Source: Escherichia phage W143. Taken from it: a stretch of 64,000 bases of DNA. The notes beneath the pieces were generated by a model. The model was not told the DNA's origin, did no database searches, and was given only the letters and a program-made list of their open reading frames with translations. Within the stretch, counting starts at the first letter, position 1. Each line of letters starts with the position of its first letter. A program made the position numbers and the translations under genes. Where the stretch lies: sequence record MZ189262.1; one strand, written 5' to 3'. This document shows, one piece after another, positions 1 through 58,532 of this stretch.

Positions 1-1460
1 TCTTTGAAAACCAGGAAAAAGATTTCCAGACAGCTCCAGAGTACAAAGACGAAAAAATCGCTCAGGCGTTCGGTTCTTTCTTAACAGAAGCTGAAATCGG
101 TGGTGACCACGGTTACAATGCTACTAACATCGCTGCAGGTCAGACTTCTGGCGCAGTAACTCAGATTGGCCCAGCTGTTATGGGTATGGTACGTCGTGCT
201 ATTCCTAACCTGATTGCTTTCGATATTTGCGGTGTTCAGCCGATGAATAGCCCGACCGGTCAGGTATTCGCACTGCGCGCAGTATATGGTAAAGACCCAA
301 TCGCTTCCGGCGCTAAAGAAGCATTCCACCCAATGTATGGTCCAGATGCAATGTTCTCTGGTCAGGGTGCTGCTAAGAAATTCGCTGCTTTGAAAGCAAG
401 TGATACTCTTGAAGTTGGAACTATTTACACCCACTTCTTCCAGGACACTGGTACTGTGTATCTGCAAGCTACAGAAGCTAAACAAATTGATTCCGCTGCA
501 TCTGACGCAGACAAATTAGATGCTGAAATTAAGAAACAAATGGAAGCTGGTGTACTGGTAGAAATCGCTGAAGGTATGGCTACTTCTATCGCTGAACTTC
601 AGGAAAGTTTCAACGGTTCTACCGATAACCCATGGAATGAAATGGGCTTCCGTATCGATAAACAAGTTATCGAAGCTAAATCTCGCCAGCTGAAAGCTGC
701 TTACTCTATCGAATTAGCACAAGACCTCCGCGCTGTTCACGGTATGGATGCTGATGCTGAACTGTCTGGTATTCTGGCTACCGAAATCATGCTGGAAATT
801 AACCGTGAAGTTGTTGATTGGATTAACTACTCAGCTCAGGTTGGTAAATCTGGTATGACCCTGACTCCGGGTTCTAAAGCTGGTGTATTTGACTTCCAGG
901 ATCCGATTGATATTCGTGGTGCTCGCTGGGCGGGTGAATCCTTTAAAGCTCTGCTGTTCCAGATTGACAAAGAAGCAGTTGAAATTGCTCGTCAGACCGG
1001 TCGTGGTGAAGGTAACTTCATTATCGCTTCCCGTAACGTAGTTAACGTTCTGGCTTCAGTTGATACTGGCATTTCTTATGCTGCACAGGGTCTGGCTACC
1101 GGCTTTAACACTGATACTACCAAGTCAGTATTTGCTGGTGTTCTGGGTGGTAAATACCGTGTATATATCGACCAGTATGCTAAACAGGATTATTTCACCG
1201 TAGGTTATAAAGGTCCGAACGAAATGGATGCAGGTATTTACTATGCTCCATATGTAGCTCTGACTCCGCTGCGTGGTTCCGATCCGAAGAACTTCCAACC
1301 AGTAATGGGATTCAAAACTCGTTACGGTATCGGTATCAACCCATTTGCAGAATCCGCTGCTCAGGCTCCGGCTTCTCGCATCCAGAGCGGTATGCCTTCT
1401 ATTCTGAATAGCCTTGGTAAAAACGCTTACTTCCGCCGTGTATATGTTAAAGGTATCTAA
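1..1460 (+). CDS. 23: major capsid protein gp23 (5' end upstream of window; frame enters at nt 3)
   Basis: Frame 3 is open from the window edge (FENQEKDFQTAPEYKDEKIAQAF...) to TAA 1458-1460; translation matches T4 gp23 almost residue for residue; stem-loop terminator follows. Confidence 0.97.
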   Translation, partial: FENQEKDFQTAPEYKDEKIAQAFGSFLTEAEIGGDHGYNATNIAAGQTSGAVTQIGPAVMGMVRRAIPNLIAFDICGVQPMNSPTGQVFALRAVYGKDPIASGAKEAFHPMYGPDAMFSGQGAAKKFAALKASDTLEVGTIYTHFFQDTGTVYLQATEAKQIDSAASDADKLDAEIKKQMEAGVLVEIAEGMATSIAELQESFNGSTDNPWNEMGFRIDKQVIEAKSRQLKAAYSIELAQDLRAVHGMDADAELSGILATEIMLEINREVVDWINYSAQVGKSGMTLTPGSKAGVFDFQDPIDIRGARWAGESFKALLFQIDKEAVEIARQTGRGEGNFIIASRNVVNVLASVDTGISYAAQGLATGFNTDTTKSVFAGVLGGKYRVYIDQYAKQDYFTVGYKGPNEMDAGIYYAPYVALTPLRGSDPKNFQPVMGFKTRYGIGINPFAESAAQAPASRIQSGMPSILNSLGKNAYFRRVYVKGI

Positions 1461-1474
1461 GATATAACCTTATT

Positions 1475-1506
1475 ATGGGAGACTTCGGTCTCCCATTCTT
1501 GTTTCT
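1475..1506 (+). terminator. intrinsic terminator after gene 23
   Basis: Stem ATGGGAGAC / GTCTCCCAT with TTCG loop (1475-1496) followed by T-rich TCTTGTTTCT. Confidence 0.8.
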
Positions 1507-1509
1507 ATA

Positions 1510-1776
1510 CTACGCAATCTTAACTCGACGGTTGATGATGTCACGGAAGTCAATACGATTTTCTTGGATTTTCAGCCAGTTACCAGATTTGTCTTTGGTA
1601 TGGGTAGAATATTCACCGTTCCACCAGAAGTCAGTAGCATAATCCATGGTTTCATATTTCTTAACTAGGGCATTCACTGCATTACCGTTAGGATTGGAAC
1701 CATATTTTTCTACCAGGGCTTTGATGTCTTTATCAAGAGCGGACAGAGTAGTACGAATAAAGTTTAACTTGTTCAT
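1510..1776 (-). CDS. hypothetical protein, 88 aa, antisense to flanking late genes
   Basis: ORF MNKLNFIRTTLSALDKD...; ATG at 1776 preceded by AGGAGA (1783-1788) at 6 nt; the longer M-R-R-L-K start at 1791 has no RBS; early-type promoter upstream. Confidence 0.55.
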   Translation of the reverse strand: MNKLNFIRTTLSALDKDIKALVEKYGSNPNGNAVNALVKKYETMDYATDFWWNGEYSTHTKDKSGNWLKIQENRIDFRDIINRRVKIA

Positions 1777-1806
1777 TTTTAATCTCCTCATGTTTTTGAT
1801 AGGTCT

Positions 1807-1836
1807 ATAGTAACATGTGATAACCTTGCTGTAAAC
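1807..1836 (-). promoter_or_regulatory. early-type sigma70 promoter (GTTTAC-N18-TACTAT) for the 88-aa antisense ORF
   Basis: Minus-strand -35 GTTTAC (plus 1831-1836) and -10 TACTAT (plus 1807-1812), same architecture as other early promoters in this window. Confidence 0.6.
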
Positions 1837-1842
1837 AACTTT

Positions 1843-1850
1843 TATAAATA
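1843..1850 (+). promoter_or_regulatory. late promoter TATAAATA for gene 24
   Basis: Exact TATAAATA 29 nt upstream of ATG 1879; SD AAGG at 1867-1870. Confidence 0.8.
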
Positions 1851-1878
1851 AACATATACTCTCAACAAGGAAAGCGCA

Positions 1879-3162
1879 ATGGCTAAAATCAACGAACTTC
1901 TGCGCGAATCAACCACAACGAATAGCAACTCAATCGGTCGCCCAAATCTCGTTGCTTTGACTCGCGCTACCACTAAATTAATATATTCTGACATTGTAGC
2001 AACGCAAAGAACTAATCAACCTGTTGCTGCTTTTTATGGTATCAAATACCTTAACCCAGATAATGAATTTACATTTAAAACTGGTGCTACTTACGCTGGC
2101 GAAGCTGGATATGTAGACCGAGAACAAATCACAGAATTAACAGAAGAGTCTAAATTAACTCTCAATAAAGGCGATTTATTCAAATATAATAATATCGTTT
2201 ATAAAGTATTAGAAGATACACCATTTGCTACCATTGAAGAAAGCGATTTAGAACTAGCTCTTCAGATTGCAATTGTTCTTTTAAAGGTTCGTCTATTTTC
2301 TGATGCAGCGTCAACGAGCAAATTTGAAAGCTCTGATAGCGAAATTGCTGATGCTAGATTCCAGATTAATAAATGGCAAACCGCAGTTAAATCTCGTAAA
2401 CTTAAAACAGGTCTCACGGTTGAATTAGCACAAGATTTAGAAGCAAATGGATTCGATGCTCCTAATTTCTTGGAAGATTTGCTTGCAACTGAAATGGCGG
2501 ATGAAATCAATAAAGATATTCTACAGTCTTTGATTACAGTGTCAAAACGCTATAAAGTTACAGGAATTACTGATACCGGATTCATTGATTTGAGTTATGC
2601 ATCTGCACCTGAAGCCGGTCGTTCATTATACCGAATGGTATGTGAAATGGTTTCGCATATCCAAAAAGAATCAACTTATACAGCAACGTTCTGTGTTGCT
2701 TCAGCTCGTGCCGCTGCGATTCTTGCTGCATCAGGTTGGTTAAAACATAAACCAGAAGATGATAAATATCTTTCACAAAATGCCTATGGGTTCTTAGCTA
2801 ATGGTTTACCGCTTTATTGTGATACTAACAGCCCATTAGATTATGTAATCGTTGGCGTGGTAGAAAATATTGGCGAAAAAGAAATTGTCGGATCAATTTT
2901 CTATGCTCCGTATACAGAAGGTCTTGACTTAGATGACCCTGAACATGTAGGTGCATTTAAAGTTGTAGTTGATCCAGAAAGTTTGCAGCCATCTATCGGT
3001 TTATTGGTTAGATATGCTTTATCTGCAAATCCTTACACTGTAGCAAAAGACGAAAAAGAAGCAAGAATAATTGATGGTGGAGACATGGATAAAATGGCGG
3101 GTCGTTCAGATTTGTCTGTTTTATTAGGTGTTAAGCTACCAAAAATTATCGTTGATGAATAA
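1879..3162 (+). CDS. 24: head vertex protein gp24
   Basis: 427-aa ORF MAKINELLRESTTT...; recognised as T4 gp24 (gp23 paralog); late promoter upstream. Confidence 0.95.
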   Translation: MAKINELLRESTTTNSNSIGRPNLVALTRATTKLIYSDIVATQRTNQPVAAFYGIKYLNPDNEFTFKTGATYAGEAGYVDREQITELTEESKLTLNKGDLFKYNNIVYKVLEDTPFATIEESDLELALQIAIVLLKVRLFSDAASTSKFESSDSEIADARFQINKWQTAVKSRKLKTGLTVELAQDLEANGFDAPNFLEDLLATEMADEINKDILQSLITVSKRYKVTGITDTGFIDLSYASAPEAGRSLYRMVCEMVSHIQKESTYTATFCVASARAAAILAASGWLKHKPEDDKYLSQNAYGFLANGLPLYCDTNSPLDYVIVGVVENIGEKEIVGSIFYAPYTEGLDLDDPEHVGAFKVVVDPESLQPSIGLLVRYALSANPYTVAKDEKEARIIDGGDMDKMAGRSDLSVLLGVKLPKIIVDE

Positions 3163-3165
3163 AAC

Positions 3166-3190
3166 AAAGGGACCTTTTGGTCCCTTTTTA
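3166..3190. terminator. bidirectional stem-loop terminator between gene 24 and rnlB
   Basis: AGGGACC-TTTT-GGTCCCT stem-loop flanked by A-run upstream and T-run downstream; convergent genes on both sides. Confidence 0.75.
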
Positions 3191-3191
3191 T

Positions 3192-4196
3192 TTAACTTAC
3201 CAATTCAATCCAAGCCGGACGAAGTACATCTTGTACCATTTTAACTAATTCCTTTTTAATCAAAGAAGGATTATCCGCTTGAGTTAAAGTAATACCTTCA
3301 CGAGAAGTTTCTTCCAAAATATCTTGAACAGTTAGTCCCATCACCTTTCCAAAATCCTTCGGACTAATTTCGCCAATTTTAGAAATAACGTTATTTACTC
3401 GGTTCAGTGTAACGTAGCAAGCTAAAATTCCCAGCAATTTATTATCAGCTTCTGACAGCTCAACTTTAGCTTTAATAGGCTTATCAGACTTTTTCTTTTC
3501 ACTAAATTTAGAGCTCTTGCATTTAATAGCTACACGATTGCCATTAGGCATCCAAGAAGGATAACAAGGTTTCAATACATATCCTTCAGCAGTAAATACT
3601 TCGCCTTTTGCTTCAGCATTCCAGACGCATTTATTTGCATCAACTAATCCAGCATGGTCTACTGTAAAATTATAATCCTGGACGACAGAATCTAAATCAT
3701 TTGGCAATTTAATAAGTTCTTCAAATTTACCACGACCCAAAAGTGGAGCCATTTTAAATTTAAATGTATTACAGAATGATTCCATCATATAATCATCGAC
3801 ATAAGTCACATCACCACTTTCGGTAGTAACAATAATGTCAAATACATAAAAATCTTTATCGCCATAATCGACATTCTTCTGAATGCCAGGTCCAGCGAAT
3901 TCGCCGAAGACTTGATAAGATACAACTGCTGAAGTTTCCATAATATCTTGTACTGCTTTAATGGAATCAGCGTAATTCTTTAGAATAATTTCATACCCAA
4001 AGAAATCTTCAGCAGGAAGAATTGGTCCAGTACGTTTAGCACAAGTCGCTTTATCGCGTTCAATAATCAGTGAGAAATTTGTACCATGAATCTTTTCACG
4101 AGCTACCCATTCGCCGCCAGTCAATCCTAAACTATAAAGTTTTTCAATGAATTTAGAATTATAATGATTTTCAAGACTGCTATACTTTTTAAACAT
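3192..4196 (-). CDS. rnlB: RNA ligase 2 (Rnl2)
   Basis: 334 aa, [19 protein letters not shown]..., nucleotidyltransferase lysine motif KIHG; matches T4 Rnl2. Confidence 0.95.
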
Positions 4197-4205
4197 AATT
4201 AATCC

Positions 4206-4484
4206 TCAAAATGTAATTTCTAACCAATCACCATCACGCTGATCACTATTGACTTTAAAACTAAATCCTTCTTTTCTCAGCCAATCACCAATTTCTTCAG
4301 TAATCAATTTATCGCGAGCAGTGCAATAATAACTAAAATATGTTTTACCTTGTTCAGCTGCTTTATTAGCAAGTTCCGAAAAATCTTTAATAAAACACTC
4401 TAGTTTAAACTGTTTACTTTTAAGTGCTTTTTCGCGTAATTGATTAGCAAAAGATTCATTTTCATAAAGATCATACTGTTCCAT
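4206..4484 (-). CDS. 24.2: hypothetical protein (T4 24.2 position)
   Basis: 92-aa ORF in syntenic position between rnlB and hoc; tightly packed with neighbours. Confidence 0.7.
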   Translation of the reverse strand: MEQYDLYENESFANQLREKALKSKQFKLECFIKDFSELANKAAEQGKTYFSYYCTARDKLITEEIGDWLRKEGFSFKVNSDQRDGDWLEITF

Positions 4485-4686
4485 TTTTCACCTTCTTATT
4501 AATATGTCTTTTTCTATAGACAACTTTTTCTCGAGTCTCAAATTTATTCTTAGCAGTCATAGCTCGAGCCCATAATACAGCCACTTCTTTCGCCTGTAAG
4601 TTCAATTCACGAGCAATTTCAATGAATGACTTTCCAGACTCATGGAGTGTAAACACCACAACCTCAGTTCTCATAATCAATCTCAT
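4471..4686 (-). CDS. 24.3: hypothetical protein (T4 24.3 position), possible HTH
   Basis: 71-aa ORF; segment SFIEIARELNLQAKEVAVLWARAM resembles a helix-turn-helix. Confidence 0.65.
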   Translation of the reverse strand: MRLIMRTEVVVFTLHESGKSFIEIARELNLQAKEVAVLWARAMTAKNKFETREKVVYRKRHINKKVKNGTV

Positions 4687-4740
4687 GTTATCGAGTTAGT
4701 GCCATTATATACATCGTTTTCTGATTGTGTTTTGTGTGCT

Positions 4741-4769
4741 TTCAAAATGAAGAAAGGGGCCGAAGCCCC
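4741..4769 (-). terminator. stem-loop terminator downstream of hoc
   Basis: GGGGC-CGAA-GCCCC hairpin (4756-4769) followed on minus strand by TTTCTTCATTTTGAA. Confidence 0.7.
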
Positions 4770-4774
4770 TTAGA

Positions 4775-5905
4775 TTATGGATAGGTATAGATGATACCAG
4801 TTTCTAAAGCAGTTTTATGAATGATGTATCCATTACGCGATTCTTGAACATCAACTTCTGGATAGTCTTTCATCATCTTCTGAAGAGTGTAACGATGCAA
4901 GTAGTACTTACTATCTGGGTCGTCAGTTTTCCAATCTTTACCTTCTTCAGTCATTTTTTGGATTTCATCCATAACCCACCAACCGCACCAGATATAAGCT
5001 GAAGTACGATGTGGAAGAGGATGAACATAAGGTAGTTCACCTTCTGGTTCCGGAGCAGCTTTATCAGTTACCTGAACTTGACCTGTTGTTTTAACTGTTT
5101 TGCTATCATAATCAGCGGCGGTAACAGTTGCAGTAACTTCAATGGTTTGACTTCCAATAGATGATGTATCAACGGTGTATACATTAGTTGACCCTTCTAC
5201 AGGAGAAGAATCTTTCTTCCATGAATACGTAATTTGTGCTTCTTCCGGAGCATCCGTAACGTTAGCAGTAAATGTAGCCGAAGCATCTTGCTGAACATTA
5301 ATAGAAGGAGGAGTCAATGTAACCTGCGGGTTCATTGTCTTCTTATTAACTGTCAATGATACTTCATTGGAAGTAACTTCCTTTGCATCATAATCTGTCG
5401 CTGTTACTTGGGCTACGCATTTAATTCTTTTTACTCCACTTGTAGTTGGAGTATAGCTAAATGTAGAGTTAGTTTCTCCGCCAACCTGTGAATCATCTAC
5501 ATACCACTGATACGTAGCAGACGCTCCAGCTGGTTGAGAAGCTAAGGCAACAGTAAATTGAACCGGGGTTCCAATTACTCCAGCTGAAGGACTATCGGGA
5601 GTTACAGCTAAGGTAGTCGTTTGTGTCTTATTTTGAACTGTGATAGTTGTTGTCGCTTCAGCCGTTTCCGGGCCTCCTTCAGAAAGTGTATTTGTTGCAA
5701 CTACCTTAATAGTCTTTTGACCAGCAGGTCCTTTTAATACATAATCAAAAGTTGCTGCTGATCCTTCTTGGGGAGCATTATCTACGCTCCAAGCATAGGT
5801 AATAGTTCCACCTCCAGTTTCACCACTGGGTGTAGCAGTAAACTGCTTGGTTTCATCAATAACCCCTGTTGGTGTTTTAGGAGTTATATCAACTGTAAAA
5901 GCCAT
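4775..5905 (-). CDS. hoc: highly immunogenic outer capsid protein Hoc
   Basis: 376 aa, Thr/Val-rich with repeated Ig-like segments (YAWSVD..., YQWYVDD..., YSWKKD...); matches T4 Hoc in length and position. Confidence 0.9.
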   Translation of the reverse strand: MAFTVDITPKTPTGVIDETKQFTATPSGETGGGTITYAWSVDNAPQEGSAATFDYVLKGPAGQKTIKVVATNTLSEGGPETAEATTTITVQNKTQTTTLAVTPDSPSAGVIGTPVQFTVALASQPAGASATYQWYVDDSQVGGETNSTFSYTPTTSGVKRIKCVAQVTATDYDAKEVTSNEVSLTVNKKTMNPQVTLTPPSINVQQDASATFTANVTDAPEEAQITYSWKKDSSPVEGSTNVYTVDTSSIGSQTIEVTATVTAADYDSKTVKTTGQVQVTDKAAPEPEGELPYVHPLPHRTSAYIWCGWWVMDEIQKMTEEGKDWKTDDPDSKYYLHRYTLQKMMKDYPEVDVQESRNGYIIHKTALETGIIYTYP

Positions 5906-57743: not shown

Positions 57744-58379
57744 TCACAGTTCAGATGCTACGGTGATTACAGCTTCAATGTTTTCTGCCGAGCGTTTAAT
57801 GTCAAGATACACATTACCGTTTTTAGCGATTTTACATGACATTCCGATATCAGTAAATTTCTGAATATGATGTTCCATCATTTTGTATCCAAAAATTCGC
57901 ATATTTCCATTGTTGTTAATTTCAAAATTACGAATTCCGTGAGTGCGTTTTTCTAAAATAGCAAGATAGTTACTACGATAAGTTTCAACCTTTTTAAGAA
58001 CAAATCCATTTTCATCTAAAAGTTTTAGCATGAGGTCTTTATCTTCTTCCATATCGGAAGTAATCTCGCGAGCTTTACGAGTTGCTCGTTTTTTCAGCAG
58101 TTCCGGAGCATTTTCCTGTGCGTATAAAGTTGCTGCATTTGAAATAATATCCTGAGCTTCACCAGTAATGATTAATCCATCACCAGATTTCTCCACCAGG
58201 CCTTTTTTAATCAATACCCCAATATTACTATTAACTACTGCATTACCTAAATCTGGATGCACCTCACGAACTTCTGCAGCTGTAATGAAATCTTTCTTAG
58301 CAATGGTAATTAAAATCGCAGCAGTTTTTTCATTCAGAACATCGTTAGAAGCTTTGATGATGTAAGTTACTTTAGACAT
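57744..58379 (-). CDS. motA: MotA middle-transcription activator
   Basis: 211 aa, MSKVTYIIKASNDVLNEKTAAILITIAKKDFITAAEVREVHPDLG...; matches T4 MotA. Confidence 0.95.
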   Translation of the reverse strand: MSKVTYIIKASNDVLNEKTAAILITIAKKDFITAAEVREVHPDLGNAVVNSNIGVLIKKGLVEKSGDGLIITGEAQDIISNAATLYAQENAPELLKKRATRKAREITSDMEEDKDLMLKLLDENGFVLKKVETYRSNYLAILEKRTHGIRNFEINNNGNMRIFGYKMMEHHIQKFTDIGMSCKIAKNGNVYLDIKRSAENIEAVITVASEL

Positions 58380-58420
58380 TTTCTAATCTCCGTAATTCTG
58401 TATCAGTAGTTGATAGTTGT

Positions 58421-58450
58421 ATAGTACCACAGTATGCTTTGGTTGTAAAC
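58421..58450 (-). promoter_or_regulatory. early promoter (proximal copy) for motA
   Basis: -35 GTTTAC (plus 58445-58450), -10 TACTAT (plus 58421-58426). Confidence 0.7.
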
Positions 58451-58483
58451 CGTTTTGTGAAAAAAAAAATAGTTGATAGTTGT

Positions 58484-58513
58484 ATAGTACCACAGTATGC
58501 TTTGGTTGTAAAC
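58484..58513 (-). promoter_or_regulatory. early promoter (distal duplicated copy) for motA
   Basis: -35 GTTTAC (plus 58508-58513), -10 TACTAT (plus 58484-58489); exact copy of the proximal promoter. Confidence 0.65.
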
Positions 58514-58532
58514 CGTTTTGTGAAAAAAAAAA

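Follow-up and report, generated by a model that had tools for sequence, protein, structure and literature searches.

A putative early accessory gene cassette encoding an 88-residue orphan protein between capsid genes 23 and 24 of Escherichia phage W143

The stretch of DNA analysed here, referred to as the window, comprises 64,000 nucleotides of Escherichia phage W143 (sequence record MZ189262.1), a Tequatrovirus, read 5' to 3' on one strand. Gene 23 ends at position 1460 and gene 24 occupies positions 1879-3162, and the gap between them contains, wholly within it, an 88-codon open reading frame (ORF) on the minus strand. Its ATG is at 1776-1774, and the coding sequence runs from 1776 to 1510 (codons 1776-1513, stop codon TAG at 1512-1510), as documented by the ORF list, a PHROG match, dN/dS values, an AlphaFold2 (AF2) model, and an exact-sequence look-up, which returned W143 QWV60520.1, deposited as hypothetical protein, as identical to the 88-aa product. 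A previous sequence-only reading of the region had placed an 88-aa minus-strand ORF between genes 23 and 24; it is present at these coordinates and conserved at that place across T-even genera. The mechanically called ORF is longer by five codons, opening at an in-frame ATG at 1791 to give 93 aa. This start was rejected because the ATG overlaps the ribosome-binding site (RBS) and is used by no homologue, all of which begin with MNK or MTK, making 88 aa the correct length.

The strong RBS claimed for the ORF was located by direct reading of the sequence, with the Shine-Dalgarno motif AGGAGA at 1788-1783 on the minus strand, 6 nt 5' of the ATG. The leader around it is unstructured (-3 kcal/mol, z +0.46), and the motif is kept as GGAG(A/T) in LF82-1, JS09, and VR26. 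Among unsaturated pairs, dN/dS is 0.115 for the window against LF82-1 and 0.17 for JS09 against O157tp3, and the protein sequence is conserved even where the DNA is saturated (dS > 1.5). The 88-aa ORF is a real protein-coding gene under purifying selection.

Upstream of the RBS, a T4-type early (sigma-70) promoter occupies 1807-1836 on the minus strand, identified by promoter scan, motif enrichment, and conservation upstream of the homologues and of T4 segD. It consists of the -35 sequence GTTTACA at 1836-1830, TGT at 1815-1813 (-15 to -13), and the -10 hexamer TACTAT at 1812-1807, with a predicted minus-strand transcription start near 1800. The A/T-rich region upstream of it, TTTATTTATAAAAGTTG, stands at the UP position and coincides with the opposite strand of the gene 24 late promoter, and all four elements of the UP/-35/TGn/-10 arrangement are present at this site. 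The promoter had been described as GTTTAC-N18-TACTAT, which was found at 1836-1831 and 1812-1807 and equals TTTACA-N17-TACTAT (1835-1807) counted one base differently. T4 early promoters are described as being of the UP/-35/TGn/-10 type (PMC2988021), and the T4/PST early-promoter (PeSL) consensus is TTTACW-N17-TAYWAT (PMC4122927). This consensus occurs at 10 sites in the 64-kb window against 0.36 ± 0.61 expected, an enrichment of about 28-fold, with all 10 on the minus strand, which is the early-gene strand, and with TG two bases before the -10 hexamer in nine of them. A generic sigma-70 scan was uninformative, giving nine promoter-like sites against 10.9 in shuffled sequence. The early-promoter elements are conserved upstream of the ORF homologues and of T4 segD, with a deviation in VR26, where the -10 hexamer is CATAAT and the TG is missing.

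Another early promoter of the window, upstream of motA, is doubled by a perfect 63-bp tandem duplication (58407-58532). The two copies lie at 58421-58449 and 58484-58512 on the minus strand, each with an A/T tract and TTTACA-N17-TACTAT with TG; the motA ATG, on that strand too, is near 58379, and a terminator-like hairpin is found immediately upstream. A 291-bp query from the motA region spans about 227 bp in T4T and most relatives, indicating a single copy of the promoter in those phages.

The ORF is flanked on its 3' side by a G+C-rich hairpin, ATGGGAGACTTCGGTCTCCCAT, at 1475-1496, which can be read on both strands, as the intrinsic terminator of gene 23 on the plus strand and as the 3' hairpin of the ORF transcript on the minus strand. 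Its folding energy is -15.8 kcal/mol on the plus strand and -17.2 kcal/mol on the minus strand, with z about -3.5. It scores as a terminator only on the plus strand, where a T-run follows the stem; the minus-strand hairpin is not followed by a U-tract, leaving termination there uncertain. On the 5' side, the gene 24 late promoter TATAAATA lies at 1843-1850 on the plus strand as an exact match and is conserved in all aligned phages, being kept even in the 'empty-site' phages T2 and fPS-90 and annotated as a late promoter in fPS-90. The position claimed for the ORF, between the gp23 terminator and the gp24 late promoter, is thus confirmed by the hairpin at 1475-1496 and by TATAAATA at 1843-1850. 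A hairpin at 3166-3187, between gene 24 (plus) and rnlB (minus), scores as an intrinsic terminator on both strands and serves these two convergent genes; the gene 23 hairpin scores as one on the plus strand only.

The early and late promoters stand back-to-back and divergent, with 7 bp separating the -35 hexamer from TATAAATA, and the ORF transcript therefore does not overlap the gene 24 mRNA made from its own promoter. Antisense transcription into gene 23 is possible because the minus-strand hairpin lacks a U-tract. The sequence-only reading had called the gene antisense to the surrounding late genes, which holds for the opposite strand but not for overlap, the ORF being wholly intergenic and needing read-through past the hairpin to become antisense. 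An Rfam scan of window positions 1-5000 returned nothing near the ORF region.

The 88-aa gene is already known, being annotated as hypothetical in hundreds of T-even genomes and belonging to PHROG 6003. A tblastn search found the ORF in 237 phage records, at 33-97% identity across several genera, and synteny comparison of the 23-24 interval showed it to be conserved there in Tequatrovirus, Dhakavirus, Gaprivervirus, and Mosigvirus. In Tequatrovirus G28 it lies in the interval on the strand opposite to both genes, and the same interval and orientation are found in Dhakavirus JS98 (97.7% identity), and Gaprivervirus VR26 (about 61%), as well as in Mosigvirus JS09 and O157 typing phage 3, where it is labelled RB69ORF188c-like and identity is about 33-36%. 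Two metagenomic T-even contigs also carry it in the 23-24 interval on the opposite strand. Non-syntenic homologues occur in rV5-like genomes, within long arrays whose small ORFs all point the same way, and one further homologue follows tail gene J in a siphovirus-like contig. The small ORFs neighbouring the homologues in the rV5-like arrays have no Pfam match, so that no recognisable nuclease accompanies them.

The interval exists in four states. It is empty in T2, RB14, RB32, RB10, fPS-90, and most Tequatrovirus, where the hairpin and TATAAATA are present and the early promoter is absent; in T2 and fPS-90 this empty interval measures 83 nt. It holds segD only, with the ORF absent, in T4, T6, and RB18 and in about 55 records overall, and it holds the 88-aa ORF only in the window and in most of the 237 records. 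In the fourth state, that of the LF82-1 series, the ORF is followed 3 nt on, on the same strand, by a gene 57% identical to SegD. The LF82-1 SegD-like gene (2619-3278 of the retrieved locus) sits exactly between the ORF stop codon and the gene 23 hairpin, marking the ORF/hairpin junction, which corresponds to window positions 1497-1512, as a homing endonuclease insertion site. The LF82-1 spacer between the ORF and gene 24, together with the start of gene 24, is Mosigvirus-like and nearly identical to JS09, and since its ORF is of the JS98/window type, the LF82-1 interval is a mosaic.

Shortened copies of the ORF were also encountered, comprising RB69 Q7Y4W1 (41 aa) and mogra_95 (51 aa), whose annotation starts at an internal Met and covers the C-terminal part alone, and in 310Ecol104PP_00148 (64 aa) the frame changes after residue 43. 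These shortened or frameshifted copies may be pseudogenes, or they may reflect sequencing or annotation errors. The many empty sites, together with the truncated and frameshifted copies, indicate that the cassette is dispensable, and as copies are broken and the ORF is absent from most Tequatrovirus, any benefit it confers must be conditional. Next to the interval, two tandem copies of gene 24, the capsid vertex protein gene, are found in Dhakavirus, Gaprivervirus, and the two ORF-bearing metagenomic T-even contigs (retrieved-locus coordinates 335-2899 in JS98, 1-2394 in VR26, and 3337-5901 and 2338-4897 in the contigs); the gene is single-copy in the window and in T4.

Positions 1400-1950 of the window are 99.8% identical to GEP001, vB_EcoM-G28, EP01, and KIT06. 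Within this region, a patch at 1427-1880, carrying the whole cassette of hairpin, ORF, RBS, and early promoter, is JS98-like and is set within T4-like capsid genes. In 100-nt windows from 1501 to 1900, identity is 93-97% to JS98 and 58-74% to T4, whereas in the adjoining stretches of genes 23 and 24 it is 90-100% to T4 and 47-91% to JS98, except for 401-500, where identity to T4 is 63%. The megablast match to JS98 begins at 1427. A JS98-like patch inside T4-like flanks points to lateral exchange of the cassette as a unit, and recombination within the conserved capsid genes that flank it would account for this exchange.

The sequence-only reading had also named a segD gene in the 23-24 interval of T4, and segD is indeed present there, on the minus strand. 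Alignment of the upstream regions from the window, LF82-1, VR26, and JS09 with that of T4 segD revealed one common layout, consisting of the gene 24 start, TATAAATA, the promoter (G/A)TTTACA-N17-TA(C/T)TAT with its -10 hexamer after TG, and a GGAG RBS. The T4 site upstream of segD, TTTACAAGACCAAAGTAATATGATATTAT (T4 NC_000866, about 107,253-107,281, minus strand), has the form TTTACA-N17-TATTAT with TG, stands back-to-back with the gene 24 late promoter, and is the only consensus match in 10 kb against 0.06 expected. The spacers of the T4 segD promoter and the window promoter are identical at 6 of 17 bases. Common descent of the two promoters is likely, judging from the identical position that both hold next to TATAAATA.

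A 2018 paper on SegD reportedly found segD to be expressed during infection. PMC10448857 cites this paper. According to a 2010 review, segD is the only T4 endonuclease gene oriented against its neighbours, a segD-specific promoter was not found, and transcript levels are probably vanishingly low (PMC2988022); no middle promoter is listed for segD (PMC2988021). Time-resolved omics from 2022 classify segD as an early RNA and a middle protein, with the protein detected (PMC9697503 supplements). The shared promoter layout and the early segD RNA together suggest that the window promoter is probably active early, and the alignment indicates that T4 segD probably uses the promoter that drives the 88-aa gene in other T-even phages. 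By analogy with T4 segD, which has the same promoter architecture and is reported as an early RNA, we infer that the ORF is transcribed early from its own promoter.

The product was called unknown on the first reading, a description with which the profile search agrees, since the protein matches PHROG 6003 over its full length (E 6.1e-49, residues 1-88 on profile positions 1-88 of 90) and this PHROG is annotated as unknown function. All 19 aligned relatives match the same profile, and the named members of the cluster are all called 'hypothetical protein' or 'uncharacterized protein'. Length is kept across the 19-sequence alignment, and the invariant residues are M1, K3, F6, N30-G31-N32, and Q71, with K3 as the sole invariant basic residue; all of these could be structural, acting in helix capping or in the core. 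AlphaFold2, run from this shallow alignment, predicted a compact domain with a mean pLDDT of 93.7 and a pTM of 0.79, composed of helices at 3-25 and 31-48, strands at 52-61 and 67-71, and a helix at 77-87, giving a helix-helix-beta hairpin-helix topology. The isoelectric point is 9.2-9.9 in 17 of the 19 members (about 9.4 for the window protein), GRAVY ranges from -0.4 to -1.0, hydrophobic segments are absent from all 19, Cys is absent from 16 including the window protein, and there is no conserved His. The product would be a small soluble basic host-directed accessory protein.

Searches beyond PHROG gave little. Scanning the protein and its 19 relatives with Pfam, NCBIfam, and PADLOC produced only scattered sub-threshold matches, of which DUF5380 (5 of 19, E about 0.08), DUF4859 (three members), and Ca_bind_SSO6904 (two members) were dismissed as noise. 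Among the PADLOC defence models, the window protein matched none and the 19 members gave two isolated weak matches. Searched against PDB sequences, both the single sequence and the profile matched only de novo helical proteins, at E of at least 0.09, and no helix-turn-helix, winged-helix, ribbon-helix-helix, or other recognised nucleic-acid-binding fold was seen in the predicted model. The verdict that the protein is not a Seg or HNH endonuclease stands: no significant Pfam match, GIY-YIG included, was found, HNH was absent by Pfam in all 19 members, and BLASTP of the 88-aa protein against T4 SegD (E 0.22) and the LF82-1 endonuclease (E 7.1) was negative. When 1.84 billion representative proteins were searched exhaustively with the profile, only about six genuine clusters emerged; two long repeat proteins and one chimeric contig also returned were found to be spurious on reading their sequences. 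By this search, the family is small and phage-restricted. In the library of papers searched by locus tags, PHROG number, and RB69ORF188c, none dealt with the family, the lone match for ORF188c concerning ORF188c of other phages.

The gene is best regarded as an accessory cassette of an ordinary kind. Over its full length, the window protein belongs to the group comprising PHROG 6003, RB69ORF188c, and JS98 orf173 (EpJS98_gp173), from which it differs in nothing. The T4 segD locus shares the interval, the minus orientation, the back-to-back pairing of TATAAATA with an early-type promoter, and the GGAG RBS, whereas SegD has 223 aa with GIY-YIG against 88 aa without a nuclease motif. Morons, a concept from lambdoid phages, are autonomous promoter-gene-terminator units found between adjacent genes of related phages. 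The W143 cassette resembles them in having its own promoter, in lying between genes that are adjacent in T2, RB14, RB32, and fPS-90, and in being dispensable and laterally exchanged; unlike them, it would by analogy be early lytic rather than prophage-expressed, and its 3' hairpin is shared with gene 23, with no clear terminator in the cassette direction.

In T4-type phages, PeSL motifs (promoter-early plus stem-loop) mediate modular shuffling of ORFans (PMC2839356, PMC4122927). The W143 promoter is exact to the PeSL consensus, and the gene is likewise a plastic non-essential ORF within a conserved core. Unlike PeSL cassettes, its exchange would be explained by capsid-gene recombination and not by PeSL repeats: the composite motifs were not found on both sides, the promoter lying only 5' and the hairpin only 3' of the cassette, and upstream of the cassette promoter are the gene 24 late promoter and start codon, with no stem-loop. 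AsiA, Arn, Dmd, and Stp are small early host-directed proteins of T4. The 88-aa protein shares with them the size class, an early promoter, a soluble stand-alone domain, and dispensability, but shows no sequence or fold similarity to them.

Taken as a whole, the feature is likely to be an autonomous early accessory gene cassette of the moron type, dispensable and mobile, whose product acts on a host component. Such a cassette would combine a strong T4-type early promoter, an open RBS, an 88-codon gene, and a hairpin. Within the first minutes after infection, transcription by host sigma-70 RNA polymerase would begin near 1800 and run away from the divergent gene 24 promoter, and the open RBS would allow efficient translation. 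The minus-strand hairpin may stabilise the 3' end, or some transcripts may continue antisense into gene 23. The product would be a small soluble basic protein forming a compact domain without known relatives, acting alone on a host component in takeover or counter-defence by stoichiometric binding, and not in capsid assembly. A stand-alone host-directed role appears most likely because the family serves in three unrelated phage backgrounds and homologues also occur in the early ORF arrays of unrelated coliphages, although we infer this biochemical role more weakly. The cassette would move between co-infecting T-even phages by homologous recombination in the flanking capsid genes and would act as a landing site for segD-type genes; in T4, it has probably been supplanted by segD behind the shared promoter.

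The main alternative to binding of a host component, though an unlikely one, is nucleic-acid binding, suggested by the conserved basic charge. The product would then be a regulator, a small basic protein that binds DNA or RNA and modulates early expression while inhibiting no host protein, with host nucleoid DNA or a phage or host transcript as its target. An isoelectric point of 9.2-9.9 in 17 of 19 members, maintained despite identities down to 28-33%, fits such a role, as does an early promoter like those of known T4 early regulators. Basic isoelectric points are, however, common in small phage proteins and make weak evidence, only K3 is invariant among the basic residues, and the model contains no recognised nucleic-acid-binding fold. 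It is also conceivable, but improbable, that RNA is the product and the ORF incidental, with read-through into gene 23 giving an 'anti-late' antisense transcript that damps leaky or premature capsid expression. Early synthesis of anti-late RNA is long established for T4 infection, the ORF is oriented opposite to genes 23 and 24, and the hairpin scores as a terminator on the plus strand only, having no U-tract on the minus strand. Against this role stand the purifying selection on the protein frame (dN/dS 0.12-0.17), the confident fold, the homologues outside any capsid-gene context, the T2-type phages that manage without the promoter, and the absence of an Rfam match.

The LF82-1-type phages, in which a gene 57% identical to SegD lies 3 nt past the ORF in the same orientation, and T4, with segD at the exact ORF position behind the same promoter region, raise the idea that the ORF is part of a segD-type element, being a leftover domain of the endonuclease, its partner, or a factor conferring immunity to it. 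The distribution of the ORF largely refutes this highly improbable reading, with most of the 237 ORF records lacking an endonuclease, the 55 T4-type segD records lacking the ORF, and the rV5-like homologues sitting among small ORFs without a recognisable nuclease; in addition, the protein resembles neither SegD nor the LF82-1 endonuclease, and Pfam detects neither GIY-YIG nor HNH in it. The probability of a chance ORF in the spacer coupled with a chance promoter match is next to nil. The generic sigma-70 scan, with nine sites against 10.9 in shuffled sequence, would permit it, but the early-promoter motif is about 28-fold enriched and strand-specific, and conservation and selection refute a chance ORF, which would have to account for 237 records from several genera (33-97% identity), for low dN/dS, and for a confidently predicted fold.

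Beyond the host-directed accessory cassette favoured here, two further-reaching readings are offered tentatively. One is that the protein is a host-factor inhibitor of new fold used across coliphage families, for example an anti-defence protein passed among T-even, rV5-like, and siphovirus phages, which is speculation. The other, fairly well supported by the promoter alignment, is that the cassette was ancestral in the 23-24 slot and that its early promoter was captured by segD in T4. If true, this capture would explain the backward orientation of segD and its promoterless appearance, both of them a long-standing puzzle, and its observed early expression.

The analysis provides a candidate promoter for T4 segD, at about 107,253-107,281 on the minus strand, which contrasts with the 2010 review and fits the later omics. 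The 23-24 interval, in its four states, constitutes a natural experiment on replacement between a gene cassette and a homing endonuclease between essential capsid genes. The orphan domain, with its confident predicted fold and its presence in unrelated coliphages, is a candidate for host-takeover and counter-defence screens.
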